Virus record (IMG/VR): IMGVR_UViG_2529292981_000041
Strand: one strand, 5' to 3'
Length of the DNA: 14,983 bases
From: a virus
Taxonomy: Duplodnaviria; Heunggongvirae; Uroviricota; Caudoviricetes
The position numbers and the translations under genes were made by a program. Shown piece by piece: positions 1 through 14,983 of the stretch (positions are counted from its first letter, which is position 1; every line of letters starts with the position of its first letter). A model generated the notes under the pieces. That model saw nothing but the letters and a program-made list of their open reading frames with translations. It did no database searches and was not told the DNA's origin.

Positions 1-165
1 ATGGCAAAGCCGCTCATCACGCTCAATGGCCTAAAAATCGTCATTATGTTGGGAATGCTGGTCATTATTCTCTGCGGTATCCGTTTTGCCGCCGAGATCA
101 TCGTGCCGTTTATTCTCGCATTATTTATTGCTGTTATATATAACTTATTTCACATAACACGTTGA
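1..165 (+). pseudogene. Truncated 5' fragment (54 codons) of an inner-membrane transporter gene, TqsA/YdgG-like (AI-2E family)
   Basis: ATG at 1; translation [45 protein letters not shown] is strongly hydrophobic and matches my memory of the TqsA N-terminus. The frame then runs into AT-rich sequence and stops at 163-165 (YNLFHITR*). Identity is from memory, not verified. Confidence 0.45.
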
Positions 166-246
166 TTTAATTAAATAATTTTCACCGCAAAAAGTGCCAA
201 AAATCGCAAAATGACTACACCAGTGACTACACCGTTCGGTGCACTG

Positions 247-276
247 TATGAAACAACGTGGAACAAATAGACACAA
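247..276 (-). promoter_or_regulatory. Three tandem 10-bp TTGTT-type repeats (minus strand: ttgtgtctat ttgttccacg ttgtttcata)
   Basis: The 15-mer aacaacgtggaacaa at 252-266 is identical to 7716-7730 and differs by one base from the reverse complement of 13684-13698. Confidence 0.35.
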
Positions 277-387
277 GAAATATACAGGCGGATCATCTTT
301 CCAGGGGGAAGCGCACCAATTCATGAGGGGCGTTAATGTCGATATGGGGATCCCCACCTACCGGAATTTTTTTCCGGTTAAACGTTA

Positions 388-498
388 ATCAGGCTGGTGG
401 GCTTTACCTGTTCGGTAGGTGTTATGATTATCGTAATACCTTTCCCCCAATGGGGTAAAAGCATCAACCGTAACGAAAGTCGTTATGGTTGCCACTGA
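388..498 (+). pseudogene. Degraded fragment resembling the C-terminal region of a large terminase, opposite orientation to the island terL
   Basis: The 18-mer atcaggctggtgggcttt at 388-405 is the exact reverse complement of 1519-1536 inside terL, where it encodes IRLVGF. The plus frame here reads IRLVGFTCSVGVMIIVIPFPQ, against terL IRLVGFDTWNATHLRTQLQGAGFEVEPFPQ, then stops at 496-498. Confidence 0.3.
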
Positions 499-607
499 TA
501 CCCCAAATTTGGGTATCACGAGTAAGCCCCAAAATCTGGGTGTTACTCTTACTACCCAAACTACGGGTAGTTTCCGTAGTTTCATGGTCGAGTTGCAGAT
601 CTGCAAC
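444..607. repeat. Cluster of short inverted repeats (CCCAAA..GGG type) plus a perfect 16-bp palindrome
   Basis: Imperfect 21-bp palindrome gataccccaaatttgggtatc (498-518); ccca-aaatc-tggg (about 528-540); ctaccc-aaactac-gggtag (about 552-570); perfect palindrome gttgcagatctgcaac at 592-607. Confidence 0.4.
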
Positions 608-863
608 TCCCCCATTAACCACAGGCGAATTTCCGCCTTCGGTCATTCCTTAATCATCTGCGTAATCATAATGATTATTCAGCAAGCGCAATTTTGCGCT
701 TTGCTTAAAGTTCAGCGAGTTACCGCGCCGACTTCCTCAAATTGAGGTTTCCGAAAATATCAGCGGGTTAGCGATTAAGCTGACCATTAATTAAACTGCG
801 AAAATGTCGTAGTTGTGAGGGGTGTAGCCAACCCATTTTTGGGCCGTCGGGAATATCAACCAG

Positions 864-1145
864 TTACCGCCGCAACCGCTCCGGCTTCTTCCAGTGGTAC
901 GTTATTTTCTCCTTCTCCCGATACATCTCCACGCGGCGACGGTAGGCCAGCAACTCAAGAACTCTGGTTCGTATGTTGCGCATATCCACGCCATTAAGTT
1001 CTATACCATCACGGCGCATCACCTCAGCAACAACACGCGCATAGTTTTCGGCTGTCACGCTGTCCGGCAGCGTGGCCTGTTCGTCAGCCTGCTGGCTGAT
1101 TCCGGCAACGCGGCGGATTAATCCCGTTATTTCGGCTTCTGTCAT
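864..1145 (-). CDS. Hypothetical protein, last gene of the packaging operon (93 aa from ATG at 1145; a GTG at 1169 would give 101 aa)
   Basis: ORF MTEAEITGLIRRVAGISQQADEQ... lies directly downstream of terL and overlaps its stop. No recognisable motif. Confidence 0.5.
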   Translation of the reverse strand: MTEAEITGLIRRVAGISQQADEQATLPDSVTAENYARVVAEVMRRDGIELNGVDMRNIRTRVLELLAYRRRVEMYREKEKITYHWKKPERLRR

Positions 1146-1158
1146 GCTGCTGACCTCA

Positions 1159-2820
1159 TTACACCCCACTAAATTCTTCCAGTTTCTGGCGGTGGCTGTC
1201 GCTTATATCAAAAGCAAAATCCTCATGCTCTGCCTGGAATGTACCAAACGCCATCAGCGCCGCCACGCTCGGGTCTATCTTGTTCGGTGATTTTTTCTTG
1301 TTCGGCTTGATATTGGCGTTCGCGTCACTCTGCATCACGACGTTACTCATCGACCAGGACAACACCGGATCGCCACGATGCACAATCACCCTGCGGTTAA
1401 CAAAAACTTCGAACGATTTCGCCGCCGGACTGAATCTGAGGTAGGTTTGCGGGAACGGCTCCACCTCAAAACCTGCCCCCTGTAATTGCGTTCTGAGATG
1501 CGTGGCGTTCCACGTATCAAAGCCCACCAGCCTGATATTAAATTTCTCCGCGTCCTGCATGATGTCATCTCTGATCCGGTCGTAATCAATGCAGTCGCCA
1601 GGCGTTGTGCGTATCCAGCCTGCTTTAGCCCACTGACGATAGATGGCGCGGTTTTTATTGGCGGGGTTCTGTAGCTGGAACTCCGGCAGATAATGACGGG
1701 AAACCAGCATAATGGTTTTACCTACCGGAAAGGCATAGCACACGCTGGAAATATCGCTTGTGGATGATAAATCCAGCCCCGCGTAACACTCCTGGCCGTG
1801 TAAATCTTCCTCTGTGAACGTTCCGGCACACTCAGCCCATGCGCCGTTACCCATCCACGGGGTAGCCCCCTGGCACCAGATATTAAATCGCTTTGTCATC
1901 ATCTCCACCCACTGCGACGGAATACCCCGCGCTTTCTGGATGGTTGAGGCCAGTTTTTCACGATCCACGGAAACATCAATATTAGGGTTCGCCTTTATCC
2001 ACATCGCCGGATCATCAACCTCGTTTTCGTCGTCCAGTTCGTAAATCAGTACAAAAATTGAATCGTTGACCTCTTCGCCGTCCAGGATCTGGCAGCAATA
2101 ATCATAGTGCTGCTTACAGGCTGAAACGACGTTACTGCCTGATGTGGTAATAGCAAATAACAGCCCTTCGGGACGTGCGCCCATCCCCAGCTCAAGCGCG
2201 GAATAAACGCCGTTATCGGGGTGCAAGTGGTATTCGTCCACGATGGAAAGGCTGGGGTTTGTTCCCTCGATGGTTGCCGCTTTTGCTGCCAGCGGCTTTA
2301 ACAGGCTGTTGCTTTTCGGGTGTATCACCTTATGCGCCTGAATATTCACCCGCCTGCGTAACGGTCGGGATAAAAGGCACATCTGACGCGCATCATCAAA
2401 GACGATCCGCGCCTGGTCACGGCTCACCGCTGCGGTGTAGATATCCTGCTGACCGTTCTCCATAATCAGAAACCAGTTAGCCAGAATCGCGGCGGTCGTT
2501 GATTTCGCATTTTTGCGCGGCACTTCGATAAAGGCGCTCGTATATTTGCGCCGTCCGGTGGCCTTAACCTTAAAGCCGAGAATGCACGCAAAGGCGAACT
2601 GCTGCCACGGCTCCAGCTCAATGGGTCTGCCACGCATCGGCCCTTTTACGTGCGGGCACACCCTGGAAAAGGCAATAAACCGATCCACAACCTCACGATC
2701 GAACGTGTAAAGGGGGCTTTTAAGGTCCGAAAAGTACCGTTTAACGGCCTGTTTCAGCCGTTTACAGGCCGGAATTTTGCCCGTTTTTACGTCTTCTGCG
2801 TACTTATTCCAGGCGGTCAA
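1159..2820 (-). CDS. terL: Terminase large subunit (Terminase_1-like), apparent TTG start
   Basis: 553-aa ORF with the terminase ATPase P-loop context FIEVPRKNAKSTTAAILANWF and a nuclease-type C-terminal half. The furthest in-frame start is TTG at 2818-2820, preceded by GAGGA. It overlaps the terS stop by 17 nt. Confidence 0.9.
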   Translation of the reverse strand: MTAWNKYAEDVKTGKIPACKRLKQAVKRYFSDLKSPLYTFDREVVDRFIAFSRVCPHVKGPMRGRPIELEPWQQFAFACILGFKVKATGRRKYTSAFIEVPRKNAKSTTAAILANWFLIMENGQQDIYTAAVSRDQARIVFDDARQMCLLSRPLRRRVNIQAHKVIHPKSNSLLKPLAAKAATIEGTNPSLSIVDEYHLHPDNGVYSALELGMGARPEGLLFAITTSGSNVVSACKQHYDYCCQILDGEEVNDSIFVLIYELDDENEVDDPAMWIKANPNIDVSVDREKLASTIQKARGIPSQWVEMMTKRFNIWCQGATPWMGNGAWAECAGTFTEEDLHGQECYAGLDLSSTSDISSVCYAFPVGKTIMLVSRHYLPEFQLQNPANKNRAIYRQWAKAGWIRTTPGDCIDYDRIRDDIMQDAEKFNIRLVGFDTWNATHLRTQLQGAGFEVEPFPQTYLRFSPAAKSFEVFVNRRVIVHRGDPVLSWSMSNVVMQSDANANIKPNKKKSPNKIDPSVAALMAFGTFQAEHEDFAFDISDSHRQKLEEFSGV

Positions 2821-3160
2821 GCTCGTCCTCTTCTTCTGTTTCCGGTGGATTTTTACGGCGGCTTATCGGGTCAAAACCGAGCAAGGAGGCCATTTTTATC
2901 ATCACTCTTTCCGCGTCGGATTTCGCGCTTAATGCGGGGTTTCTGCTCTCTCCGCCCTGACTGTTAACAATGCTGAACCCGCGCGCCGCAAGGTCTGCGA
3001 CGGCTTTCCGGTATATCGAGTAATTGACGCAATACAGTTCCAGATTGCTCCAGTCGGCGGGAGTCAGGTCACCCCGTTCCGCAAGCTGCCGCGATTTTTC
3101 CCGCCACTGCTTCACGGCGATATCATCCAGGTAGGCGGGGGCTTTCGGTGGTCTTGCCAT
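2804..3160 (-). CDS. terS: Terminase small subunit, P27 family
   Basis: 118-aa ORF starting MARPPKAP, the RPPK N-terminal signature of P27-family small terminases, with an acidic C-terminus; sits immediately upstream of terL. Confidence 0.8.
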   Translation of the reverse strand: MARPPKAPAYLDDIAVKQWREKSRQLAERGDLTPADWSNLELYCVNYSIYRKAVADLAARGFSIVNSQGGESRNPALSAKSDAERVMIKMASLLGFDPISRRKNPPETEEEDELDRLE

Positions 3161-3214
3161 ACTTATTTTTTCGCCAGATTATTTTTCAAAAAATTCCCGT
3201 GCATAAAAATTTGA

Positions 3215-3265
3215 GGAGGCGGTCGGTGCCCGGCGGGGTCGGGTTTGTCCTGAAAACGCCCCCCA
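3215..3265. other. Candidate cos region (GC-rich block between HNH and terS)
   Basis: ggaggcggtcggtgcccggcggggtcgggtttgtcc sits in the only sizeable non-coding gap of the packaging operon, about 60-100 nt upstream of the terS start. Placement is by analogy with HK97-like HNH/TerS/TerL cos systems. Confidence 0.25.
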
Positions 3266-3283
3266 CCCCGTCATACAGCCTCA

Positions 3284-3466
3284 TCAGCGATTGCGGAAAC
3301 ATTCCATAACCTCGCGGTCACGGTCGGTTAATCGCTTCGCTGTGATGCGTTCTGCGCGTCCTGACGCTTTATCTTTATGCCCTGTTTCCTGTGTCTTCCA
3401 TGCGTCACGCTGCCTTATAAGTCCACGGATAAGGCGGTTTTGTTCCCGCTCATTCATCAGCGTCAT
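3284..3466 (-). CDS. Possible small basic protein (60 aa) between HNH and terS
   Basis: ATG at 3464-3466, MTLMNEREQNRLIRGLIRQRDAWK...; Arg/Lys-rich; overlaps the HNH stop by a few codons. Could instead be non-coding sequence around cos. Confidence 0.25.
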   Translation of the reverse strand: MTLMNEREQNRLIRGLIRQRDAWKTQETGHKDKASGRAERITAKRLTDRDREVMECFRNR

Positions 3467-3890
3467 ACATCCAGTTATTGCGGTTAGCGGCCCGTTCTTC
3501 CTCTTCACGAAACCCACCTGCGGCACGCTTGCTTTTTGTTGCCGGATCAAGCCATTTCGTTTTCTGGTTATGGCACGCCTGGCACAATGGCTGATGGTTC
3601 CATTCGGGCCAGAAGAGAACATCATCACCGCCATTAATCGGGATAATGTGATCCACCACCACGGCGGGCGTATATATCCCCTTCTCAAGGCATCGCACGC
3701 ATAACGGGTTTTTACTCAGATACATGGCGCGGTATTTGTCCCACTGTCTGGAGTACCCACGCGCGCGGCGGTGTCCTCGTCTGGCATCCTCTGCACGCCA
3801 TGCCGCCCGCCTGTGCTCCTCACACTTGCCGGACTTCACGCGCCTGTTACAGCCTGGTTCTGTGCATCGTCTTAATGGTTGCCACGGCAT
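3450..3890 (-). CDS. HNH endonuclease (packaging-associated)
   Basis: 146-aa ORF with Cys pairs CTEPGCNRR and CVRC, conserved His/Asn spacing (VVVDHIIPINGG ... NHQPLCQACHNQK). Its ATG shares one base with the connector stop. Confidence 0.85.
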   Translation of the reverse strand: MPWQPLRRCTEPGCNRRVKSGKCEEHRRAAWRAEDARRGHRRARGYSRQWDKYRAMYLSKNPLCVRCLEKGIYTPAVVVDHIIPINGGDDVLFWPEWNHQPLCQACHNQKTKWLDPATKSKRAAGGFREEEERAANRNNWMYDADE

Positions 3891-4186
3891 CAGTACACCC
3901 CCACATCACGGTAAGCCGTCCAGAGTGCACCAATCGTCATGGGTACGCGTGTTTTTGCGTTATCCGCGACAATCTGGCGATTTTCATACAGGTGAGCGAT
4001 AAACATCATGCAGCCAATCTTTATGGCTGGCGTGAACGCCAGCCCGTCATCAAAGCGCCTGCCTATGTGTATCTGGCACGCCTCAAGCGATGCGGCGATG
4101 TATCCGCTGATTAACTGGTCTTCCTCGTCGCCATCGATGCGGCAATGGAGTTTCACTTCTTCCAGGGTGATAAGTTCTTCTGTCAT
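3890..4186 (-). CDS. gp6-like head-tail connector protein
   Basis: 98 aa, MTEELITLEEVKLHCRIDGDEEDQLISGYIAAS..., the typical N-terminal motif of phage gp6-like connector proteins. ATGA overlap with the upstream gene. Confidence 0.65.
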   Translation of the reverse strand: MTEELITLEEVKLHCRIDGDEEDQLISGYIAASLEACQIHIGRRFDDGLAFTPAIKIGCMMFIAHLYENRQIVADNAKTRVPMTIGALWTAYRDVGVY

Positions 4187-4521
4187 TTTTCCGCGCCCTC
4201 ACGACAAAGAATTTCAAGGCGTGTCCTGGCGGCATCCGGCAGCGGCTGCCCGATGATATTCAGTACACGCCCCGCCAGCGGCCCCGTATTGACCTTTATC
4301 CGGCTGGTGGCGTTGATGTCCTTCCTGTAGCGTATCCATATCCTTACCGTTCCAGTCGCCAGTTCTGCACCCGATGAAATGGCCTCCTTGCTGCTGATCA
4401 TGTTCACGCTTGCCCAGAGTGTGTGACCGTCCACCCACGTTTCGAGTATTTCGCCGGTTATATCCCTGGTCTGTTTCAGGGTCTGAATCGTTACCCTGTC
4501 ACGCAGTCGCCCTATGTTCAT
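4183..4521 (-). CDS. Head-closure / head-tail adaptor protein (start MNIGRL)
   Basis: ATG at 4519-4521 overlaps the portal TGA stop (ATGA). Product MNIGRLRDRVTIQTLKQTRDITGEILETWVDGHTLWASV... fits phage head-tail joining proteins. Confidence 0.65.
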   Translation of the reverse strand: MNIGRLRDRVTIQTLKQTRDITGEILETWVDGHTLWASVNMISSKEAISSGAELATGTVRIWIRYRKDINATSRIKVNTGPLAGRVLNIIGQPLPDAARTRLEILCREGAEK

Positions 4522-5729
4522 TCCGGTTTTTCTCCCTCGCTGATTTTTACTTCCTGTTTCCATGCCTGGCTGAACTCATCACCACCATCACGCGGGGACA
4601 GCCCTTCACGTTCGCGGGCTTCGTTCGGGCACATAACGCCGGATTTGATGCCGCGTTCATAGGTGGCAAAGCGTTCGCCAGGAGTGGCCCGTAACAGGTC
4701 CGCGCTGTCAAACTCCACCTGATACCGGATACCAGGTACAGGTGAGGCCACCAGCAGGGCGTTTTTTATCTGCTGCTCAAAGTTCGCCAGCCACGGGCGC
4801 ATCGTCATGGTGAGAAATGCGCGGCTTGCCTCGCTGAAATTGCTGTAGGTGCTGTTGCTGTATTCCTGCAAAAAAATCGGCGAGACGTTGAACATTCGGG
4901 CGATGTCTTCAATGGTGAAGCGACGGGAGGCCAGCCATTCAGCATCCTGATTACTCATGCCCAGCTGCTGATAGCTCATACCCCCTTCAAGGATGGGCGT
5001 TTTTCCGGCGTTTCTGGCCCCTTTGTAGCGTTCCAGTGCGGCTAATGCCTGTTTACCCTTCACGCCGTCCAGCCACTCGCCTGACGTGATAACCCCTGCC
5101 GCCATCATGCCATCACGCATCACGCTCGCGCCGTGGCGTTGTTGGGCCAGCCCAAGCCCCAGCGATTCGCGGCAGATGGTTACAGGTGAGCGCCCCATAA
5201 AACCGTCATCCGTGGAGTAACGAAGGTGGAGAACCTCCCACGGTAAATAGTTGCGGGTGTTTCCGGTGTAGGCGTCAGTGATGCAGTAGCGCCAGTTATG
5301 CTCACCTGTCTGCTCCACGTTCACCGACTGCGGCGGGTAAGGATGTAAAGCCACCGGAAAACCATCACGCCCCCACTGAATCACCGCATAAGCATTACCG
5401 TTTAACAGGCAGTGGCGGATCATCATTCGCTTAAACTGGTAGGGGGTTTGCCATGCGTTCGGGCGCTCGTTGAGGATGTGATCGACCGGATGAGAATCAA
5501 GCCACTCTCGGGCCTCCTTCCCCTTCTCATTGCGTACCAGGTACAGGTAACACGGCATGGTAGCCACCGCCTCAGAGATGACCGTGACGGCGTTCATGAC
5601 GGCGGGCAGTGATTCCGCTGTCCCCGATGATACGTACTCACCCGCCCCCGTGTTCGATGTGCCAGCCAGCGCCATAAACTCATCAAGCGTCATGCTGCGC
5701 TGCTCTTTTTTTCTTCTGAAAGGCCACAT
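4518..5729 (-). CDS. Portal protein, HK97 family
   Basis: 403-aa ORF with portal-type segments (LLNGNAYAVIQW, DIARMFNVSPIFL). Start is preceded by GGGGG and lies 1 nt after the protease stop. Confidence 0.9.
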   Translation of the reverse strand: MWPFRRKKEQRSMTLDEFMALAGTSNTGAGEYVSSGTAESLPAVMNAVTVISEAVATMPCYLYLVRNEKGKEAREWLDSHPVDHILNERPNAWQTPYQFKRMMIRHCLLNGNAYAVIQWGRDGFPVALHPYPPQSVNVEQTGEHNWRYCITDAYTGNTRNYLPWEVLHLRYSTDDGFMGRSPVTICRESLGLGLAQQRHGASVMRDGMMAAGVITSGEWLDGVKGKQALAALERYKGARNAGKTPILEGGMSYQQLGMSNQDAEWLASRRFTIEDIARMFNVSPIFLQEYSNSTYSNFSEASRAFLTMTMRPWLANFEQQIKNALLVASPVPGIRYQVEFDSADLLRATPGERFATYERGIKSGVMCPNEAREREGLSPRDGGDEFSQAWKQEVKISEGEKPE

Positions 5730-5730
5730 A

Positions 5731-6288
5731 TCACACCCCCGCTAAATCCGCCCACCAGCGGCGATTATCCGCACGAGGCATTTTTTCAGGGTGCTGCTCA
5801 TACAGGGAACGGCGGGCCAGCTCCACGCCAGAATCAGGGTAAGCCGGTACGGATGTCACGGTAATTTCGTACAGTTCCGCTATCAGTACAGTACGCACAC
5901 ATGGATCGACTGTCGTATCCCATACATCCTTACGGGAACGAAAGCCAAAGCTCATGCCCGAGATGTCACCACGTTTAACCAGTTCGATAACGTCCCGCCC
6001 TGTGCTGGTATCCGGTGGGATCAGTTCAAAACGTAACCCTGTGTCATCCTCTTCCAGTCTCAGCGTACCGGAACGGGTGCGCCCCAGTAACATGCTGTGG
6101 TCATGCTCATACAGGCCGCGAACGTCATTACCCACCGCAAGCCATTCAGTAAACGCCCCCCGCTGGAATTTTTCGTAAAACTCCCCCCATAGCAGCTCTG
6201 AAAGGTTATCCCAGCGAACAACGTAGCCTGTAAGCGTGTTGCTGCCGCTGGTGGTGATTTCCGATGACCGGATTTCCATACTCATCAT
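5731..6288 (-). CDS. Prohead maturation protease, HK97 family (S78-like)
   Basis: 185 aa; motifs GYVVRWDN, GLYEHDHSMLLGRT and ISGMSFGF are characteristic of HK97-type prohead proteases. Confidence 0.85.
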   Translation of the reverse strand: MMSMEIRSSEITTSGSNTLTGYVVRWDNLSELLWGEFYEKFQRGAFTEWLAVGNDVRGLYEHDHSMLLGRTRSGTLRLEEDDTGLRFELIPPDTSTGRDVIELVKRGDISGMSFGFRSRKDVWDTTVDPCVRTVLIAELYEITVTSVPAYPDSGVELARRSLYEQHPEKMPRADNRRWWADLAGV

Positions 6289-6311
6289 AATTTTTTCACC
6301 TGTAAAACAGA

Positions 6312-6333
6312 GAAGGGGCTTTTTAGCCCCTTC
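6312..6333 (-). terminator. Perfect 9-bp GC-rich hairpin 10 nt after the capsid gene stop (possible partial terminator)
   Basis: gaaggggct-tttt-agccccttc. On the minus strand it is followed by tctgtttta, then the protease start. Confidence 0.45.
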
Positions 6334-6342
6334 GGTGTGCTG

Positions 6343-7500
6343 TTAATCGTCGTCCTGCGGCAGTTCCAGAATCTTTATAGCGTTCGAATCCACCACGCCA
6401 CCGCCTAAATATTTCTGCGTGAAAATTTTGATAAAGCCCGGCTCTGTCAGGTTGTCCGGTCTGGTGCGCACGCCCGTTTCATGATCAACGATGTAATAAC
6501 CGCGTTTGAAGTCACCCAGGGCGATAACGTTATCCGGCATAAATTCCAGATACTCCACCGGAAGCCCCAGCAACGTATCAGGATCACCCGCCTGTAAACG
6601 GTCGCGCCAGATGTAATCGCCGTTCGCGTTCTTCACCTTCTGAAGTTTTGCCGCCGTCGTGGAGTTAACCACCCAGACCGCGTTTTTGCGGTATTTTTTA
6701 CGTAATGCAAATTTCAGGTCGATCAGCGGGTCCGCAGATGTCCACGCCAGAGATTCGGAAGGTTTAATTACCTGCAACGTACCAAAATCACGCTCTTTGT
6801 CGTTCTTCTCTGCACGGGGTACGGATAAAAAACCTTTTGCTTTTTTGTCACCGTCGCCCACAACCAGATCGCTTTCTTCGGTTTCCGTGAAGGTGTCGCC
6901 AATCTCACCCGTCAGCCATGAAAGGATGTCCACATCGGAAAAATCCACGATTTCCTGTGTGGTGCGCGGGTACGCATAGACCGGATACAGCTTAATGCTC
7001 ACCTCGTTAATCTGCGGGGTGCTGGTCTGTTCGCGTGCCTTACCCTCTTCACCGTGGTTAACGGTCGCACCGCCAGCGGAAACAAGCTGCTTAAACTCGT
7101 TGCTGCTGATTTTCTTCACGGTACAGATGCGGCGCATGGTGGATTCATCCGCCAGCATTCGCATGATTTCGGTGTTCAGCTCGGGGATAACGGTATAACC
7201 ACCATCAGCGGGAACGCCTGTACTTAATGCGCGGGTTTCACCTGTCAGGATGTAGTTGCGTAGTTCTGCGGGGTCAGTGGTCTGACTGCTTTTACCTGGC
7301 TTGCTGCGCTCTTCGTCTGCAATGGCTTCAAGGCGGGAAATGTCTTTATCGAGGGATTCAGCTTTAGCGCGTAATTCGTCAAATTTTGCGCCCTCAGCAT
7401 CGTTAAGACTGCGGTTTTCTTTTTCCGCGTTCTCCAGCATGTCGCGCATCTGATTTTTAATGGCGGTTTTCTGCTGGCGTAATTCGATTATTCTCGGCAT
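6343..7500 (-). CDS. Major capsid protein, HK97 fold, with N-terminal delta (scaffold-like) domain
   Basis: 385 aa; charged, coiled-coil-like first ~110 residues (LRQQKTAIKNQMRDMLENAEKENRSLNDAEGAKFDELRAKAESLDKDISRLEAIADEE) followed by an HK97 MCP-like body. Confidence 0.9.
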   Translation of the reverse strand: MPRIIELRQQKTAIKNQMRDMLENAEKENRSLNDAEGAKFDELRAKAESLDKDISRLEAIADEERSKPGKSSQTTDPAELRNYILTGETRALSTGVPADGGYTVIPELNTEIMRMLADESTMRRICTVKKISSNEFKQLVSAGGATVNHGEEGKAREQTSTPQINEVSIKLYPVYAYPRTTQEIVDFSDVDILSWLTGEIGDTFTETEESDLVVGDGDKKAKGFLSVPRAEKNDKERDFGTLQVIKPSESLAWTSADPLIDLKFALRKKYRKNAVWVVNSTTAAKLQKVKNANGDYIWRDRLQAGDPDTLLGLPVEYLEFMPDNVIALGDFKRGYYIVDHETGVRTRPDNLTEPGFIKIFTQKYLGGGVVDSNAIKILELPQDDD

Positions 7501-7537
7501 AAAAAAAGTCCTGGGGTTAAGTAAGGAACTCCAGGAC
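7501..7537 (-). terminator. Intrinsic-terminator-like hairpin plus 7-U tract ending at the capsid ATG; the only SD-like AGGA lies in the 3' arm
   Basis: Minus strand: gtcctggagtt-ccttactt-aaccccaggac then ttttttt then ATG. Stem is 7 bp, one mismatch, 3 bp. Confidence 0.45.
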
Positions 7538-7590
7538 GCGGCAAAAACTCAACCGTTTTTCATAAGGAAATCAGCAATCGCACCGTTCGT

Positions 7591-7638
7591 TTTCCCGCCT
7601 GGTAATGAATATTGGCGAGAACATTAACAGGCGGGAAA
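7591..7638. repeat. Long inverted repeat (about 16-bp stem, 14-nt loop) in the capsid-operon leader
   Basis: tttcccgcctg g taatg ... cattaa caggcgggaaa: 11 perfect pairs, one mismatch, 5 more pairs. Confidence 0.5.
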
Positions 7639-7710
7639 GTGGCCCCAGCGTCCTGGCACCACGGGCGAGAATAATCATGATTCAGTTCGGGTAAAATATG
7701 CCGATCCGCT

Positions 7711-7740
7711 CAGTGAACAACGTGGAACAACCACGAACAA
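7711..7740 (-). promoter_or_regulatory. Three tandem 10-bp repeats (ttgttcgtgg ttgttccacg ttgttcactg) over a weak sigma70-like promoter for the capsid operon
   Basis: Minus strand: TTGTTC, 16 nt, TATTTT just downstream of the repeats. The weak -35 with helical-turn-phased repeats suggests activator dependence. Confidence 0.4.
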
Positions 7741-7759
7741 ATAATTTACAAAACATGAC

Positions 7760-7781
7760 AAAAAGCCGGATTGCTCCGGCT
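7760..7781 (-). terminator. Rho-independent terminator after the PerC-like gene
   Basis: Minus strand: agccgga-gcaa-tccggct followed by ttttt, 7 nt after the stop at 7788-7790. Confidence 0.5.
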
Positions 7782-7787
7782 GTGTGA

Positions 7788-8060
7788 TTATCTGTCCTGG
7801 TAATTTCGCCATATTTCATCACCAGCACCATCCATACCCATTTCGGCATAAGTGCGATCGACCGCCTTTTTCAGGTCTCCGTAATTATCCGGCGGCTCCG
7901 GTGGCCTCTGTGCCTTCCTGGAACATTCCAGCCGTCGCATCGTGATGTGATGCCGTTCCTTGTCTGTCTCCACCAGTTGCATGACTTCACCCCATCGCGC
8001 CGACGCTCTCCGGTAAAAGCCTTTCGCCTCCAGTTCTTCCGCTATGCGGTCATGTACCAT
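7788..8060 (-). CDS. Small regulator, PerC/Pch-like (putative transcriptional activator)
   Basis: ATG at 8058-8060 with a GGGGA SD; 90 aa, MVHDRIAEELEAKGFYRRASARWGEVMQ... The N-terminal AEELE-KG-x-RRA-x-RW pattern matches my recollection of PerC-family proteins. Unverified. Confidence 0.5.
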   Translation of the reverse strand: MVHDRIAEELEAKGFYRRASARWGEVMQLVETDKERHHITMRRLECSRKAQRPPEPPDNYGDLKKAVDRTYAEMGMDGAGDEIWRNYQDR

Positions 8061-8072
8061 CGTCCCCACCCC

Positions 8073-8483
8073 TCAGAACGGAATATCATCACCGTAAGGG
8101 TCATCGCCTTCCGCTGGTGGCTGATTACCCTGTGTGCCTGTGGTCTTGCGTCTGTTCCCGCCAGGACGTGCCGCACGGGCACTGATTACGCTGTCTGCAA
8201 TAACCTGATACCCCCGCCGCGTTTCCCCGTTCTGTCCGGTTCACTGGCTTACCTGCATCGTGCCGGATACGCTGGCAACATCGCCTTTTTGATGTTTAGC
8301 CAGGAAATCGGCCTGTTTGCCAAATGCGATAACCGATAACCATAACGTCGCCTGTCCGTCATGTGCCTGGCTGCATGGCAGCGATACCGCCATACGCGCC
8401 AGCGTCATCGGTGTTCCCTTGCTGGTCTGTTTTACCTGCGGGTCGTCCACCAGCCGCCCGTAAGCCGCTATCTGTGCTGTCAT
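8073..8483 (-). pseudogene. ssb: SSB-like gene interrupted by an in-frame TGA (8241-8243) at the position of the conserved Trp
   Basis: N-terminal ORF 8241-8483 (MTAQIAAYGRLVDDPQVKQ...TLWLSVIAFGK...) has OB-fold SSB character. The same frame continues for 55 codons after the TGA and ends with the SSB tail signature ...PPAEGDDPYGDDIPF*. The TGA aligns with E. coli SSB Trp88 (RTRKWTDQ against VSQ*TGQ). Confidence 0.6.
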
Positions 8484-8731
8484 GCTGTCTGCTCTCCGGT
8501 TTTAACGTTGATGGTTGTTACCTGTTCCGCTTCGGCAATCTCCCGTTCTGTCAACGTGGCAAAGTTTGCCGCTGCTGTGGTCATGAATGCGCTTATCAGG
8601 TCGGGATGTTCCTTCGCGTATCCTTCCCCTACATGTCGGTCTATCGTTCTGATTGCCACCTTTAAGGCCAGCTCTGTTATATCTAACGCTTTATATTTCG
8701 GCTCTGTTCTGTCTCTGCGTGTTCTGGTCAT
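8480..8731 (-). CDS. Hypothetical protein (83 aa), translationally coupled to ssb
   Basis: ATG at 8729-8731 preceded by AGGTGG; ATGA overlap with the ssb start; MTRTRRDRTEPKYKALDITELALKVAIRTIDRH... Confidence 0.55.
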   Translation of the reverse strand: MTRTRRDRTEPKYKALDITELALKVAIRTIDRHVGEGYAKEHPDLISAFMTTAAANFATLTEREIAEAEQVTTINVKTGEQTA

Positions 8732-8764
8732 TTGCCACCTCAATTTATATATATATAGAAACAT

Positions 8765-9082
8765 GTGCGGGTTATGCGGGTTATTGGGTTATCTTAGCGT
8801 GCTAACCATTTTTTATCCTTTTATATCAGCATGTTGCAAAACGCCCTGTTTATTATTTGCTCACCACATAACCCGCAAAACGCTCAAAATAACCCGCAAA
8901 CGGGGTTTTTTCTGCGGGTTACGCATGACTGTCCGGTGTTACTTCAGTTATTCGCCTGCGGGTTATAATCGTGCTTTTGCGGGTTATAAATGCCCTTTTG
9001 CGGGTTACGTGCGGGTTATTGATTTCCTTTATATTCATGCACTTAATACACTTATACACAGGATAACCCGCATAACCCGCAA
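8765..9082. repeat. Iteron-type replication origin: at least 11 copies of the 9-mer GCGGGTTAT / ATAACCCGC, AT-rich tracts and a DnaA-box match
   Basis: Copies at 8767, 8776, (8785 degenerate), 8868, 8889, 8914, 8958, 8979, 9000, 9011, 9063 and 9072, in both orientations; three are spaced exactly 21 bp. (TA)6 at 8746-8757; TTATACACA at 9052-9060. Sits immediately downstream of the replication gene. Confidence 0.7.
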
Positions 9083-9103
9083 TTTTTTTCCTCACACAGG
9101 GGA

Positions 9104-11236
9104 TTAATCTTCATCATCAGGCTGGAACATCAGCACGTAAAAAACATGCTGCTTACCCCCAATCTTGCCCAGCGCCTTTTTTTTGTATCGGCGATCGCTT
9201 CCCTTCTCCAGCATTCCGGCAGCATCCAGGGCACGCGCAAAATGCGCCGGATTAAATCCCTTCGCTATCTCACTCTCAAACACGTGCGGGAACGTGTAAT
9301 AGCGCATCTCGTCATCTTCGTTGCGAATGCTCCCTTTTCTGTATCCGGCAAGCTCTTTAATCGGTAAATCACGCTCATCTGTATTGGGGTACGGAAGGTA
9401 GCGGCTAAACCCAAACGACGACAAAAACGCCTCAGCCTGTTCAACCATCTGTTTAAATTCCCTGTTACCTGTGCCGAACTCCTTCACCCAGGCATTAAAG
9501 TTATGCTGTATCGCGTCGCGGCATTCCTGCACGACCCAGCCAGTTACATGACCGGAAAGCACAAGCGCGGCCTCCAGTATGGCGAAACGTTCACCCACGC
9601 GGTGGACCTGCTCGCCGTAACTCTCCGGTATCAGGTTGCGCCACCGTTCGCGGCATTCCCTTACCGTGTCCTTTGCCTCCTGCTGGTGGCCTGCCAGCCA
9701 TTTAACCCACTCACGACCCGCCGCCCCGTGATTTGCTGTCCAGGCATCCTTTAACGCGTCAGCATGTTCCTTACCGTTGCTGTATTCGTGAAATTTCGTG
9801 GCTTTTTCCATCGGAACGTTAAGCAGTCGGACAAGCTGCCCCGCCTTAACTTTTATCCCCTCACTTTTGAGGAATGTCTCAACGTCCATTTCTCCGGTGC
9901 TGATTGCCACCGTTCGCCAGTGTTTGATCTCCCTGTTGCCGCCATCCTTCGCCCCCTGCAATTTCCCTGAACCGTTAAACAGCGTATAAGCAGACGTTGA
10001 CACTTCCCGCGCATTTCCGGCCTGGCCTATCTCATCCAGTGGTAAAAGCCCGTCATTATGGGCCTCGGCCTCATTGGCAATACCTAACGCCGTGCCGTAC
10101 CAGGTCAGCCGCTGCGCGTCCGGCTCTCCCCATAAACTTGATGCGATGTTCTGCGTGGTGGTCTTACCTGCCGATGACTGTTCGAAAAGATGCACCCCGA
10201 AGCCGTCAGCACCCACAAGGCCAATTAAAGGCGCTGCCAGTGACGTTGCCACACCCAGTATCATTGAGGCATTACCGCCAGCCAGCCGCGCCACGCTGTC
10301 GCGCCAGCCATCCGCCGTGCCCGCCACGGAATAACCGTTAATCGCGGCGCTTTTTCCGGTAAACAGGATCGGTTTTTCAGATTCACCAATGATCGAACCG
10401 TCCGGCATGATGTACGCGCCAAAATGCCAGCCCGTTGTTGTGCTTAACTGCCATTCCTCATGGCTTCCGCTTAACTGCATCCAGTCCGCCAGGATTGCCC
10501 TGTATTTGCCGTTGGTTGTCACGTTCAGCCCGTGATCTTTAAGTAACCGCCAGCCGTCACGGTCGCCGATACCACCACACGGGATCGCCATTGTGATGAC
10601 TTTATGGTTTGCGGTTTTTTTCCAGCGCATCACGCGGTAATGCTCTTTACCGATCGTCCCCGTTCCCAGTAGTTCAAGCGGAGAACATAACCACGTCTCA
10701 GGCCGGATAATTTCGCCTGACTGCTTATCCACTTTGGGCGTTACCCAGAAAACACCATCGGCGCGACTTTCAACGCGTGGCTTTAATTCGTCATCGCTAT
10801 GGCTTCCGGTATCTTTTTTCTTTACCGGAAACTCAATAACCAGACCATCAGAAAGATTCTGCCGCTCACGGGCCAGATATTCGCGCCAGTTCTCCACCTT
10901 CTGACCGTGCATTCCTTCGGGGTAAAAATTTGCGTCCTGAATATCTGCCGCCGCCAGCTTCTGACCAATCTTTTTGGTCTCCACCAAATCCAGTTCTCCG
11001 GCCTGGTACAGCCTTACGCGTTTTTTTCCATCCGGAACAATTTTCAGCGCATCAAGTTCGGCAAGCTGATTTGGCCCAAGCCACACAGGCGGAACATTAT
11101 CGCCGGATGCGGGGCCATCCTGCTCCTGCCATTGTTTCGCGTGCGACCAGGCATCACTACCCGCGAAAATAATTACCTCTGTGTCTTTGTGTTTTATTCC
11201 GCGTGGCTGTTTTTTTACGTTCGGTGCCAGTTTCAT
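9104..11236 (-). CDS. Replication initiator, primase/helicase-like P-loop protein (DUF927-like ATPase)
   Basis: 710-aa ORF with Walker-A-like HLFEQSSAGKTTTQN, adjacent to the iteron origin, analogous to P4 alpha or PICI Pri-Rep proteins. ATGA overlap with the upstream gene. Domain assignment is from memory. Confidence 0.75.
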   Translation of the reverse strand: MKLAPNVKKQPRGIKHKDTEVIIFAGSDAWSHAKQWQEQDGPASGDNVPPVWLGPNQLAELDALKIVPDGKKRVRLYQAGELDLVETKKIGQKLAAADIQDANFYPEGMHGQKVENWREYLARERQNLSDGLVIEFPVKKKDTGSHSDDELKPRVESRADGVFWVTPKVDKQSGEIIRPETWLCSPLELLGTGTIGKEHYRVMRWKKTANHKVITMAIPCGGIGDRDGWRLLKDHGLNVTTNGKYRAILADWMQLSGSHEEWQLSTTTGWHFGAYIMPDGSIIGESEKPILFTGKSAAINGYSVAGTADGWRDSVARLAGGNASMILGVATSLAAPLIGLVGADGFGVHLFEQSSAGKTTTQNIASSLWGEPDAQRLTWYGTALGIANEAEAHNDGLLPLDEIGQAGNAREVSTSAYTLFNGSGKLQGAKDGGNREIKHWRTVAISTGEMDVETFLKSEGIKVKAGQLVRLLNVPMEKATKFHEYSNGKEHADALKDAWTANHGAAGREWVKWLAGHQQEAKDTVRECRERWRNLIPESYGEQVHRVGERFAILEAALVLSGHVTGWVVQECRDAIQHNFNAWVKEFGTGNREFKQMVEQAEAFLSSFGFSRYLPYPNTDERDLPIKELAGYRKGSIRNEDDEMRYYTFPHVFESEIAKGFNPAHFARALDAAGMLEKGSDRRYKKKALGKIGGKQHVFYVLMFQPDDED

Positions 11237-11532
11237 TTCTTACCCCTGAATACGTTAAGCATCTTTTTTATTTCCTGAATATTGGCGCGTGCTTTCTCCC
11301 TGCTGGTTGGTTTACTGCGGGGCGCTGCCTGTACCAGAGAAAAATCACGATCGAACTGATAAACAGGCATAACGCAGTCATATTCGTAGCCTTCACGGCG
11401 GTAAGTGATGCGGCGTTCTCTCACGCTGATAATCGTCACGATGCCGCCGTACTGGTCGCGGTAAATATCCCCGCGCATGAATTTAGTGCGAGTTTTGCCG
11501 CTGTCAGTTAAGCCAGGATATTTAAGTTTCAT
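11233..11532 (-). CDS. Hypothetical protein (99 aa)
   Basis: ATG at 11530-11532; stop overlaps the primase start (ATGA); MKLKYPGLTDSGKTRTKFMRGDIYRDQYGG... Confidence 0.6.
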   Translation of the reverse strand: MKLKYPGLTDSGKTRTKFMRGDIYRDQYGGIVTIISVRERRITYRREGYEYDCVMPVYQFDRDFSLVQAAPRSKPTSREKARANIQEIKKMLNVFRGKK

Positions 11533-11537
11533 TATTT

Positions 11538-11798
11538 TTATTCCCCGATAGCGTGACCTGATAAGCCGTTAATCTTCTCTGATATGCTCTCTATTTTGCT
11601 GGTTGAACTATCCAGTAATTCAGAAACGGCTAATATTAATCTTGCAGTTGATTCATCGCGTTCATTATTCACCAGCGACTGAAGCCACATATTCATTACT
11701 TCGTTTGCTGCGTTGTTTAAAGATATTGCGCTGTTGGCAAGGCTTCTTAATTCACTGGTCGCCAGTTTATTATTTTTCATAGCGTTCGGCTCTCTCAT
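11538..11798 (-). CDS. Hypothetical small helical protein, AT-rich gene (start ATG 11798 or 11780)
   Basis: ORF ...MKNNKLATSELRSLANSAISLNNAANEVMNMWLQSL...; GC content visibly lower than flanking genes. Confidence 0.45.
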   Translation of the reverse strand: MREPNAMKNNKLATSELRSLANSAISLNNAANEVMNMWLQSLVNNERDESTARLILAVSELLDSSTSKIESISEKINGLSGHAIGE

Positions 11799-11961
11799 CA
11801 ATTAACCACAGCGCAACACTTCCTGACAGTTTTGCCAGAAGGCCAGCTAATGCGGATATATCACCATCATTTAATTTATCAGGGTATACCTCAAGAAGGC
11901 GGCAAATAATTTCTGTCTGGTGCGCACGTTCAGCGGCTTCGTGTAATGTAATTTCCTTCAT
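11770..11961 (-). CDS. Hypothetical protein (63 aa)
   Basis: ATG at 11959-11961 with a strong AGAGGTG SD; TAATG stop/start junction with the upstream gene; MKEITLHEAAERAHQTEIICRLLEVYPDKL... Confidence 0.5.
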   Translation of the reverse strand: MKEITLHEAAERAHQTEIICRLLEVYPDKLNDGDISALAGLLAKLSGSVALWLIDERAERYEK

Positions 11962-12146
11962 TAATGCACCTCTTTTAATTCATACACTGCTGAAATAATG
12001 ACTTGTGATAAGCCATATTCTGATGATTCGCTTCTCACCGCAGCAATAGCCGTCTGAACATTAACAGCCTTCACATTCTGAGCGATACCAATTGTGTGGC
12101 CTAGTGGGTTAACAGCGCTGGCAAATACACGGAAGGTTTTAAGCAT
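11961..12146 (-). CDS. Hypothetical protein (61 aa from ATG at 12146)
   Basis: ATG preceded by GGGGG; MLKTFRVFASAVNPLGHTIGIAQNVKAVNVQ...; AT-rich. Confidence 0.5.
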   Translation of the reverse strand: MLKTFRVFASAVNPLGHTIGIAQNVKAVNVQTAIAAVRSESSEYGLSQVIISAVYELKEVH

Positions 12147-12411
12147 GGCACACCCCCTGACGAATACGGGCGGCAAATACAGCAACACAACCTGACGGGC
12201 AACGGCTACGCGCTTCGCGTTCCGTCCAGGCGGTTACGTGGATGATTTGAGATTCTCCGGCACTCAGTGCCAGAAAACGCCACACAAAGGCCGTTTGTGT
12301 GTGTACAAGGTGTGGTATATGATTTACAGCAACCATAACGGCTCCTAGTTTACGTTGTTGGTTAGAAGCCCTGCGAGTGGTAACGACACTTGCGGGGCTT
12401 TGTCTTTTCAT
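12139..12411 (-). CDS. Possible first ORF of the leftward early operon (90 aa); could instead be an untranslated leader
   Basis: ATG at 12409-12411 with AAGGT SD, about 23 nt downstream of the predicted transcription start. Ala/Val/Arg-rich composition is not convincing. Confidence 0.3.
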   Translation of the reverse strand: MKRQSPASVVTTRRASNQQRKLGAVMVAVNHIPHLVHTQTAFVWRFLALSAGESQIIHVTAWTEREARSRCPSGCVAVFAARIRQGVCHA

Positions 12412-12428
12412 CGATTACCTTGATAAAG

Positions 12429-12509
12429 GTGTCAGCCACTATATTAGTAACGGGTGTCAGCCACGTCAATAGTGTTTTTCCGTTTTCTTGTGTGTATACT
12501 GTCAGCCAC
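12429..12509. promoter_or_regulatory. Three direct operator-like repeats (G/C)TGTCAGCCAC at 12429-12439, 12454-12464 and 12499-12509
   Basis: The 10-mer TGTCAGCCAC is exact in all three (copies 1 and 2 share the full 11-mer GTGTCAGCCAC). Copies 1 and 2 overlap the leftward promoter (transcription start and -35); copy 3 overlaps the -10 (TATACT, 12495-12500) of the rightward RHH gene. Confidence 0.5.
12441..12469 (-). promoter_or_regulatory. Near-consensus sigma70 promoter driving the leftward early/replication operon
   Basis: Minus strand: TTGACG (plus 12464-12469), 17-nt spacer, TAATAT (plus 12441-12446). Confidence 0.5.
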
Positions 12510-12530
12510 CTAATAACGAGGAAATCAGAT

Positions 12531-12710
12531 ATGGCAACAAAAGCAGTTAATGCAAAATCCAAAAAGCTTGAGGCTCGAGTACCACACGCAATAGCTGATG
12601 CTGTAGAAAATTTAAAGGAAGATGGCGAAAGTACAGGGCAATTTATCGTTTCGGCACTTGAAGGCGAGATCAAACGCCGCCAGCGCCGCAAGGCCAAAGA
12701 ATCAGAATAA
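12531..12710 (+). CDS. Ribbon-helix-helix-type DNA-binding protein, candidate repressor (59 aa)
   Basis: ATG at 12531 with GAGGA SD; MATKAVNAKSKKLEARVPHAIADAVENLKEDGESTGQFIVSALEGEIKRRQRRKAKESE has a strand-helix-helix arrangement typical of Arc/CopG-like proteins. Divergent from the main operon; followed by a plus-strand terminator. Confidence 0.5.
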   Translation: MATKAVNAKSKKLEARVPHAIADAVENLKEDGESTGQFIVSALEGEIKRRQRRKAKESE

Positions 12711-12767
12711 TCACTATCAGCGCCGTGGTGTGAGGTATTACGGCGCATTGCTATGCAGGACAACACA

Positions 12768-12941
12768 ATGACCGATAAAGAATTGACCAAAACATTATCA
12801 CCGGCACGGAAAAGACGGCGCAGAAAGATAGAGCATGAATCAGAAAGATTCGCACCATGTGCTTTTGCCCTTGAGCAATTCCTTAAAGAGTACAGGGAAA
12901 AGCGCTCATTGCAGGTATGGCAACGAACTGAACCAGACTGA
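12768..12941 (+). CDS. Hypothetical small basic protein (57 aa), second gene of the rightward unit
   Basis: ATG at 12768 with AGGA 8 nt upstream; MTDKELTKTLSPARKRRRRKIEHESERF...; the terminator lies about 95 nt downstream. Confidence 0.35.
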   Translation: MTDKELTKTLSPARKRRRRKIEHESERFAPCAFALEQFLKEYREKRSLQVWQRTEPD

Positions 12942-13036
12942 TTGCATTGCCCACCAGCCTGATAGCGGCTATCATCCCCGTGCTTATGTTTGGGATCACA
13001 CACACAAACGGCGCAGCGGGTTATCTGTTCAGAAAG

Positions 13037-13064
13037 GCGGCTCCATTTCGGGGCCGCTTTTTTT
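13037..13064 (+). terminator. Rho-independent terminator of the rightward regulatory unit
   Basis: gcggctcc-atttc-ggggccgc (8-bp stem including one G-U pair) followed by seven T. Confidence 0.55.
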
Positions 13065-13210
13065 ATACCTGAAAAACCCCAATTTTGTTGTTTTTCAGTT
13101 TCACCAGGGCGAACGAATCCCCGCCCACGTTCTGGCGTATATTCAATCTTCATGGTTATAGCTCTGTGTTCAGATGATTGATGTGTGGCGGCTGCGTGCC
13201 GCCAGCGTGA

Positions 13211-13399
13211 TTAATGAACTGCCTTGCAGCTATCCTTCCAGGCCAGAACCTCGGATAAAGACCAGCCAACGGAACGACCGCCAAGTTTACGACGTGATGG
13301 GAATTGTCCGGCCTTTTCCAGGCGGTAGCGACACGTACGGCTAAGGCCGGTTAGTTTTTCGCATTCTTTTTCACGTATAAACCGATCAGTGCTTAACAC
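13211..13399 (-). CDS. alpA: AlpA-family regulator / excisionase-like protein (GTG start)
   Basis: 62 aa; CEKLTGLSRTCRYRLEKAGQFPSRRKLGGRSVGWSLSEVLAW matches the AlpA/Xis helix-turn-helix pattern (TGLSRSTIYR...FP..I.LG.RSV.W...EV..W). GTG at 13397-13399 preceded by a strong AGGGGGG SD. Confidence 0.8.
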   Translation of the reverse strand: MLSTDRFIREKECEKLTGLSRTCRYRLEKAGQFPSRRKLGGRSVGWSLSEVLAWKDSCKAVH

Positions 13400-13683
13400 T
13401 ATTGCCCCCCCTTTCGTTTCTTAAAGAGTCATCAGGTGTCTTATTGTGTCGTATTGTTCCCGCTAGAGTGATGAATGGCAAATATTGAGGATGTATGATT
13501 TACAGAAAATGAAACAGTAAGAATAAAATCTTTTAAATTCATGTTAATACAAAGGCATAAAATATTGTTTCATGCCTTTTTTCTCGCTCTTTAAAGAGTG
13601 ATTCGCTAGTGTATAAAAAACCAGTGACACATTAAAAATCAGCCACTTATAAATCTGTATGCTTTTTCGCCTCTTGTTCGTGG

Positions 13684-13723
13684 TTGTTCCACATTGTTGC
13701 TCATTGTTGCACGTTGTATCTGT
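13684..13723 (+). promoter_or_regulatory. Four tandem 10-bp TTGT-type repeats (ttgttccaca ttgttgctca ttgttgcacg ttgtatctgt) next to a 16-bp perfect palindrome
   Basis: Same repeat family as 247-276 and 7711-7740. Perfect palindrome cagtatgcgcatactg at 13733-13748; a plus-strand TTGCAC, 16 nt, TATACA promoter-like arrangement overlaps. Confidence 0.35.
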
Positions 13724-13765
13724 TCGCATATACAGTATGCGCATACTGAAAAAACACGAAAAAAA

Positions 13766-14983
13766 TTATTTTCTTCTGGCTACTGGTAGCGTGGTTACGT
13801 TTTCATGTGTTCCCGCCAGTATCCCTAACCGCTCCGTCCACATATCCAGCGCATTGCGTTTAGCATCCAGATAACGGGAATGATTATAAACTCGCTGCAT
13901 TCCTGGCATCTGGTGGCCTGTAAGCTGCTCCACGACATGCGGATCAACGCCTAAATCGTTCAGCATGGTTGTAAAGGTGCGCCGGATGTCATGCAGTGAC
14001 CAGTGAGGATGATTAAGCCTCCTGTGCGCTAATCTTCCATACTGCGATACGCTGGCCTCCTGTTTCACTTCCCCCAGCAATAAGCCCGTGTGCCTGTTCT
14101 GCTCCACCAGCTGCGTGACGAACGGCAGGATCGCTTCCGGTATGGGCCGGAATATTGCGACCTTCGTTTTGCTGTGCTCCTTCGGAACGGTCCATAGCAT
14201 TTCCGTAAAATCCCACTCCCCGATCTCCGATAACCTCAGTTCTACCGTTCTGGCTCCGAAGACAATCAGGAGGCGGATTAACGCGACGTAGTAAGGGGAG
14301 AATATTTTTTTGTCCAGTGCCTGCAATAATTCGCCAAGTTCTTTGTTACTTAAGACACGTTCGCTTATATCCGGTTTTTTCCCAACGTCCGCCACGTTCA
14401 GATCGTCCAGAACGTTGCTGATTGCATAGCGCCGCCTACGGCAGAACTTAAGCGCCTGTTTGCACGCCTGTAGCACGAATCCGGCAGTAACAGGCGTTCG
14501 CTTTGCCACCTGGTCAAAACAGGCCAGCCAGTGCCGTAGCTCGCATTTATCCAGCGGCATAGCACCAATCTGCTGTATTACGTGATTATTAAGTCGCCTT
14601 TTCAGGGCGATATAATCCACGCGGTTTTCCTTTACGTAATACTCAAGCCAGTAGGTGAGCGCATCGCCAACCGTTACCGGCTTTAACGCTTCCTGTACGG
14701 TGTAATTAAGCTCATGACGTGGATTTTTCCCCTCTGCCAGCCATGCGCGACACTGGGCGGCTTTTTCCCTGGCTGATTTCAGGCTCAGATCAGGATAACT
14801 TCCCAGCTTAATGCGTTCGGGTCGTGTCTCCCTTCCCGTTCCGGCCCTGTATGTGAAATACCAGGTCAATTTCCCTGATGTTAAATATTTCACGCTCAGG
14901 TTTCCGCCATCACTATAAAACGTGTTTTTCTCCGCTGGCTTACCATGAAGTTTCCTTAGCAAGGTATCGCTCAGTTTGTTCAT
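13766..14983 (-). CDS. int: Tyrosine integrase, P4-like, with N-terminal arm-binding domain
   Basis: 405-aa ORF, ATG at 14981-14983. Catalytic signature present: Arg in FGARTVELRL, HxxR in HDIRRTF, and Tyr region RVYNHSRY. The N-terminal ~90 aa are arm-binding-like. Confidence 0.95.
   Translation of the reverse strand: MNKLSDTLLRKLHGKPAEKNTFYSDGGNLSVKYLTSGKLTWYFTYRAGTGRETRPERIKLGSYPDLSLKSAREKAAQCRAWLAEGKNPRHELNYTVQEALKPVTVGDALTYWLEYYVKENRVDYIALKRRLNNHVIQQIGAMPLDKCELRHWLACFDQVAKRTPVTAGFVLQACKQALKFCRRRRYAISNVLDDLNVADVGKKPDISERVLSNKELGELLQALDKKIFSPYYVALIRLLIVFGARTVELRLSEIGEWDFTEMLWTVPKEHSKTKVAIFRPIPEAILPFVTQLVEQNRHTGLLLGEVKQEASVSQYGRLAHRRLNHPHWSLHDIRRTFTTMLNDLGVDPHVVEQLTGHQMPGMQRVYNHSRYLDAKRNALDMWTERLGILAGTHENVTTLPVARRK

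Follow-up and report, generated by a model that had tools for sequence, protein, structure and literature searches.

The ssb gene of a cf-PICI-type satellite carried by a cattle-associated clone of E. coli O157:H7 has very probably been interrupted by a recent, lineage-specific nonsense mutation, in which the TGG of a conserved Trp codon became TGA. The interrupted gene is an ordinary pseudogene, already annotated as such in RefSeq (where the satellite ssb CDS is tagged "pseudo" and "internal stop"), and is not a recoding device. The window, by which we mean the whole stretch of DNA analysed (14,983 nucleotides), is 100% identical to positions 2,497,700-2,512,682 of E. coli O157:H7 strain SS TX 754-1 (NZ_CP038300.1). 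The features referred to below are the following.

1..14983, minus strand: cf-PICI-type satellite inserted in tqsA (RefSeq annotation)
1-144, plus strand: 5' fragment of tqsA (RefSeq annotation)
7788..8060, minus strand: PerC-family regulator (PF06069), starting 12 nt past the original ssb stop
8073..8240, minus strand: 3' part of ssb, codons 82-136 (β5, disordered linker and DDIPF tip), with the original stop TGA at 8075..8073; equal to the intact allele of strain Z1323HEC0393
8241..8243, minus strand: premature TGA replacing codon 81, which holds the one base of ssb that differs in the nearest relative and aligns with W88 of E. coli SSB
8241..8483, minus strand: 5' part of ssb, codons 1-80 and the opal stop, an ORF that alone scores 42 bits against Pfam SSB
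8480..8731, minus strand: hypothetical 83-aa gene upstream of ssb (RefSeq CDS at 8830-9081 of record L001, overlapping ssb at 9078)
9104..11236, minus strand: DUF927 primase/replication protein of 710 aa (PF06048), the satellite replication module, upstream of ssb

Translation of window positions 8073-8483 yields a minus-strand ORF of 80 codons (8483..8241) that starts at ATG 8483..8481, reads M...TMQVSQ* and ends at TGA 8243..8241; the same frame then continues for 55 further sense codons up to ...DDPYGDDIPF and a stop at TGA 8075..8073. This arrangement had been described in the original prediction and is present exactly as described, as is the close packing of the perC-like gene behind the DDIPF stop, the ATG of which (8060) lies 12 nt downstream behind its own Shine-Dalgarno-like run (GGGGTGGGGA). 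The mutated base is window position 8241, which is A in the gene sense and T on the plus strand; relatives have G at this position, giving TGG for Trp. The base 3' of the premature stop is likewise A (UGA-A). The 80-aa product is on record as WP_000126683.1. The in-frame continuation beyond the stop is not due to chance, since hundreds of homologues have the 411-nt frame uninterrupted, and the 55 downstream codons are in frame in related elements, the reverse of what the original prediction had named as grounds for its own rejection. The 3' part of ssb is now untranslated apart from rare readthrough.

With Trp restored at codon 81, the 136-aa frame matches the SSB family of Pfam (PF00436, cut-off of 26 bits) with a score of 61 bits and an E-value of 1.3e-16 over residues 5-99, a region that spans the stop. 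Solved SSB structures also match the restored frame, the best being 1z9f (E-value 7e-11). The stop had been proposed to fall on the conserved Trp88 of E. coli SSB, and the BLASTP alignment agrees, placing it opposite this residue (RKWTDQSGQDR in E. coli SSB and SQ*TGQNGETR in the satellite frame) with the flanking Thr, Gln and Gly conserved. The chromosomal SSB of E. coli (178 aa; PDB identifiers 1eyg and 1eqq) and the satellite frame have in common the OB-fold SSB domain, the aromatic DNA-binding positions W54, F60 and W88 (W48, F54 and codon 81 in the satellite) and a disordered linker followed by a C-terminal DDIPF tip. However, the two share only ~25% identity, the linker is much shorter in the satellite protein (136 versus 178 aa), and the satellite ssb is borne on a mobile element and disrupted here, unlike the chromosomal gene. 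In E. coli SSB, Trp88 belongs to the aromatic residues that stack on DNA, and the C-terminal acidic tip of SSB is a docking site for partner proteins. BLASTP and a 19-sequence alignment reveal that the satellite SSB family retains the equivalents of W54, F60 and W88. By its profile match, predicted fold, aromatic positions and tip, the restored frame belongs to the SSB family; the TGA copy, with its frame interrupted, is an SSB pseudogene and not a functional member.

Two further observations concern the satellite SSB family as a whole. At codon 37 (window 8373-8375, minus strand), satellite SSBs invariably carry Cys in place of the DNA-stacking Trp40 of E. coli SSB. The C-terminal tip also differs within the family, being DDIPF in the window (8073-8090, minus strand), DGIPF in EcCIEDL933 (L005 7946-8356) and DDISF in a paralogue residing in the same genome (L012 6050-6460); among 120 cluster representatives, DDIPF occurs in 74, DNIPF in 26, and DGIPF and DDISF in 4 each. 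Such variation could reflect different partner specificities.

The likely effect of the truncation was considered using an AlphaFold model of a homologue that is 96% identical to the restored frame (P0017), for which the 19-sequence alignment served as input. The mean pLDDT of the model is 74.5, with values of ~76-92 over residues 1-100. It has strands at residues 2-11, 16-19, 25-36, 44-54, 69-82 (β4) and 88-101 (β5) and a helix at residues 55-62, followed by a disordered linker (residues 104-128, pLDDT <50) and then the tip. In this model, a five-stranded OB barrel with a helix between β3 and β4 is formed by the full frame only. The acidic tip after the disordered linker is likewise present in the frame, and in the TGA allele it would be reached only via readthrough. 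The 80-aa product is predicted to stop at or near the end of β4 and thus to be without β5, the flexible linker and the DDIPF tip, because of which it is likely non-functional; most likely, such a fragment would be unable to close the OB barrel and hence be inactive.

Homologous ssb DNA is present in 1,506 of the 5,426 complete E. coli genomes, with up to six copies per genome. A 61-mer centred on the stop matched 449 of these genomes, exactly in four and as a close variant in 445. The four TGA carriers are SS TX 754-1, TB21-1, HB6 and UTME-1, each of cattle or beef origin. A search with a 35-mer, for which megablast seeding is possible solely on the TGA allele, returned the same four genomes and no others, so that no independent recurrence of the stop is seen among the 5,426 complete genomes. 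Three of the four contain an exact copy of the full 14,983 bp of the window, tqsA junction included; TB21-1 matches over 14,981 bases, being two bases shorter. The nearest relative is strain Z1323HEC0393 (human, South Korea), in which the insertion site is identical and 26 of the 14,983 bases differ. Within ssb, the sole difference between the two is window position 8241 (A versus G in the gene sense), giving TGA versus TGG. TGG is also found in EC8, PA20, EDL933 and the paralogue in the same genome. In 120 homologue cluster representatives obtained by protein search, the column of the stop is occupied by Trp in 118, with one Arg and one gap, and W81 is invariant in the 19-sequence alignment. 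The original prediction had suggested aligning homologues to see whether they carry TGG or TGA, and had offered a very recent change from TGG to TGA as one of two explanations; the relatives carry TGG, and the confinement of TGA to near-identical elements in four genomes, together with the internal stop annotated in RefSeq, bears out this explanation.

The closest intact genes for comparison are those of the same satellite lineage in Z1323HEC0393 (WP_000126684.1) and in EcCIEDL933 of strain EDL933 (WP_000126692.1). As in the window, both lie between the DUF927 primase with the 83-aa gene and perC, and both have the 411-nt frame. The window ssb differs from that of Z1323HEC0393 by 1 nt and from that of EDL933 by 23 nt; codon 81 reads TGG in these two genes, both annotated as intact, and TGA in the window copy. 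The EDL933 protein ends in DGIPF and the window frame in DDIPF. The 26 differences from Z1323HEC0393 are unevenly placed, 22 of them being located in window 3282-5830 across the protease, portal, head-closure, connector and HNH genes, which suggests a recombination patch and not clock-like divergence.

About 19-21 contigs of a large assembly collection encode exactly the 80-aa product, and 309 encode exactly the intact 136-aa allele. In three contigs of draft or read-derived origin, TGA is present and the remainder of the 411-nt frame is unaltered, including the 165 nt downstream of the stop, which fits a recent event. One TGA contig of 950 bp has a single extra change that is the same as in other alleles, and it may be an assembly chimera. 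Since the premature stop recurs in independent assemblies, it is real. From these comparisons, the stop is judged to be derived, clonal and young.

Some entries in the collections may reflect the assembly process. A draft contig (L009 1501-1742) breaks exactly at the "TG" of codon 81, as would be expected if the assembly graph branches into a bubble where the paralogues differ by TGA and TGG. A second 80-aa protein belonging to another allele (P0025, with L16 and S20) is labelled "partial" in some sources, and such 80-aa partial SSB entries may be contig-end artefacts at this TGA/TGG bubble.

The element carrying the gene was classified from its gene content. The order is integrase, AlpA-type regulator, Icd-like, DUF4222, DUF927 primase, the 83-aa gene, ssb and perC, followed by HK97-type major capsid, prohead protease, portal, head closure, connector, HNH, TerS and TerL; no tail genes are annotated by RefSeq in the ~15-kb element. 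Aligned over 95% of its length, the window shares 96.3% identity with the element located between roxA and phoQ in EDL933, which is EcCIEDL933, the prototype capsid-forming PICI (10.1101/2022.09.08.507074; 10.1101/2025.02.11.637232). The gene set agrees with the description of cf-PICIs published in these two preprints, the text of which does not mention ssb, including any need for it in replication or transfer. By gene content, the window element is classed as a cf-PICI-type satellite. The stop of the 83-aa gene overlaps the start of ssb (ATGA), which indicates one operon and translational coupling. The 165 untranslated nucleotides of ssb are G-rich (54 G and 44 C), and their first 90 nt contain no stretch in which C exceeds G, on which account a strong rut site or Rho-dependent polarity on perC seems unlikely.

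Two other features of the element were noted. The AI-2 transporter gene tqsA is split into 5' and 3' pseudogene fragments that extend beyond both ends of the window, and AI-2 export is presumably lost in carriers as a consequence. The gene that follows the AlpA-type regulator (window 12531-13153) is annotated as truncated, its C-terminus being missing in comparison with the 247-aa gene of EcCIEDL933, and a gene of the YlcI/YnfO family is found on the other strand where it ends. This arrangement predates the ssb mutation, since the TGG relative has it as well.

A second, different satellite is present in the same genome between phoQ and roxA (L012 1844-12277, corresponding to NZ_CP038300.1 3,206,843-3,217,276), at the site held by EcCIEDL933 in EDL933. 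It encodes a RepA-family helicase, a lambda-like major capsid protein with a head-decoration protein, and the small terminase only. Its own SSB (WP_000126695.1) is intact, with W81 and a DDISF tip, and again has a perC gene behind it; at the DNA level, this paralogous ssb is ~95% identical to that of the window, with differences at 21 positions. The chromosomal SSB is essential in the host cell. Loss of the window ssb would be tolerated because the cell has both this essential chromosomal SSB and the intact paralogue.

Based on the above, we propose that a G-to-A transition in the gene sense at window position 8241 converted TGG, the conserved codon for Trp81, to the opal codon TGA, at which RF2 would end translation after residue 80. 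The resulting product, without β5, the linker and the partner-recruiting acidic DDIPF tip, is most likely non-functional. Near-cognate decoding of the UGA by Trp-tRNA-Trp would regenerate wild-type SSB at a level of a few percent at most, probably as an unselected by-product.

The second explanation offered by the original prediction was a leaky opal codon read by tRNA-Trp. A UGA followed by A is a comparatively leaky context according to older literature, and readthrough by tRNA-Trp at codon 81 would restore exactly the wild-type SSB; a trace of full-length SSB is plausible on both counts. The leakiness of UGA is also set by the RF2 allele (residue 246), and the RF2 of natural isolates is generally reported to be more active than that of K-12, so that the leak at the ssb UGA may be smaller than in K-12. 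Trp-tRNA-Trp competes with RF2 for UGA. Its readthrough in K-12 reporters is ~2% at 37 °C, rising to ~4% at 25 °C (PMC10570021). Passive readthrough of the ssb UGA by tRNA-Trp at a few percent is physically plausible, and to this extent the leaky-codon explanation stands as background; for the part of it that would require selection there is no indication, as the orthologues have TGG and a recoding element is absent from the window.

The stronger form of this explanation, that the leaky stop has been selected because readthrough by tRNA-Trp supplies a small, tuned dose of full-length SSB along with an OB fragment, in the manner of the Qβ coat protein, is very improbable. Apart from the reporter measurements, the 3' neighbour and the restoration of the exact residue, it could draw upon the undecayed 3' part in TGA carriers and a modest downstream fold. 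The 84 nt from the UGA onwards have a folding z-score of -2.06, with 8 of 200 shuffles folding equally well, which is unremarkable, and this structure is not an adaptation to the stop, because the nearest TGG relative has the same sequence. An undecayed 3' part is to be expected for a mutation this young, with no differences in three of the four complete elements and TB21-1 being two bases shorter. Against selection also stand the restriction of TGA to one clone (4 of the 5,426 complete genomes) and the Trp in the nearest relative and in 118 of the 120 homologue clusters. ARAGORN did not find a suppressor tRNA in the window, nor did the Rfam gathering scan find a recoding RNA element there; taken with the fold, no dedicated stimulatory signal or suppressor tRNA is seen within the window. 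Programmed UGA readthrough, of which the A1 protein of Qβ is an example, resembles the ssb case in having an in-frame UGA decodable by tRNA-Trp and a meaningful extension. Where readthrough is programmed, relatives share the stop and the short and long products are both functional, whereas the ssb stop is a private allele of one clone whose relatives encode Trp. Recoding as selenocysteine is rejected, as an Rfam SECIS match is absent in the window and the homologues carry Trp.

A related idea is that the opal codon acts as a dosage attenuator, leaving traces of wild-type SSB and an 80-aa fragment that is either inert or hinders the paralogue. The TGA allele is present in ~20 public assemblies with no further decay of its 3' part, because of which mild selection for its retention is conceivable. 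If the attenuator idea were true, the nonsense allele would be adaptive in a host with two competing satellites, but we consider this highly doubtful.

Just as improbable is that the 80-aa OB piece has itself been selected for a new function, for example as a dominant-negative subunit that poisons the SSB tetramers of a satellite, phage or host. Mixed oligomers with the paralogous SSB of the second satellite are conceivable, given the ~95% identity (DNA) of the two genes, and the fragment keeps Trp48 and Phe54, equivalent to W54 and F60 of E. coli SSB. However, it is missing the fifth strand of the barrel and is predicted to be unstable, the allele has a narrow clonal spread, and the stop does not recur independently among the complete genomes.

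A sequencing or assembly artefact, with G as the true base (TGG), could be imagined from the single-base difference from the nearest relative and from the possibility that paralogous copies in one genome confuse polishing, but it is the least probable reading of all and can practically be set aside, as the original prediction's own worry about a sequencing error is answered by the occurrence of TGA in four separately deposited complete records as well as in draft NCBI assemblies and a Logan read-derived contig, and as collapse with a paralogue differing at 21 positions would not yield one clean SNP.

Thus, the preferred reading remains that of a recent nonsense mutation, and the window ssb offers a clean case of very young, one-step pseudogenization in an accessory replication gene of a phage satellite, although in itself this matters little. 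The TGA allele could be used as a clonal marker of one cattle-associated O157:H7 sub-lineage, and as a natural knock-down with which to probe the need for the satellite SSB in cf-PICI replication or transfer. The role of this SSB, which is widely conserved among satellites (1,506 of 5,426 genomes), is a more interesting question than the stop codon that interrupts it here.
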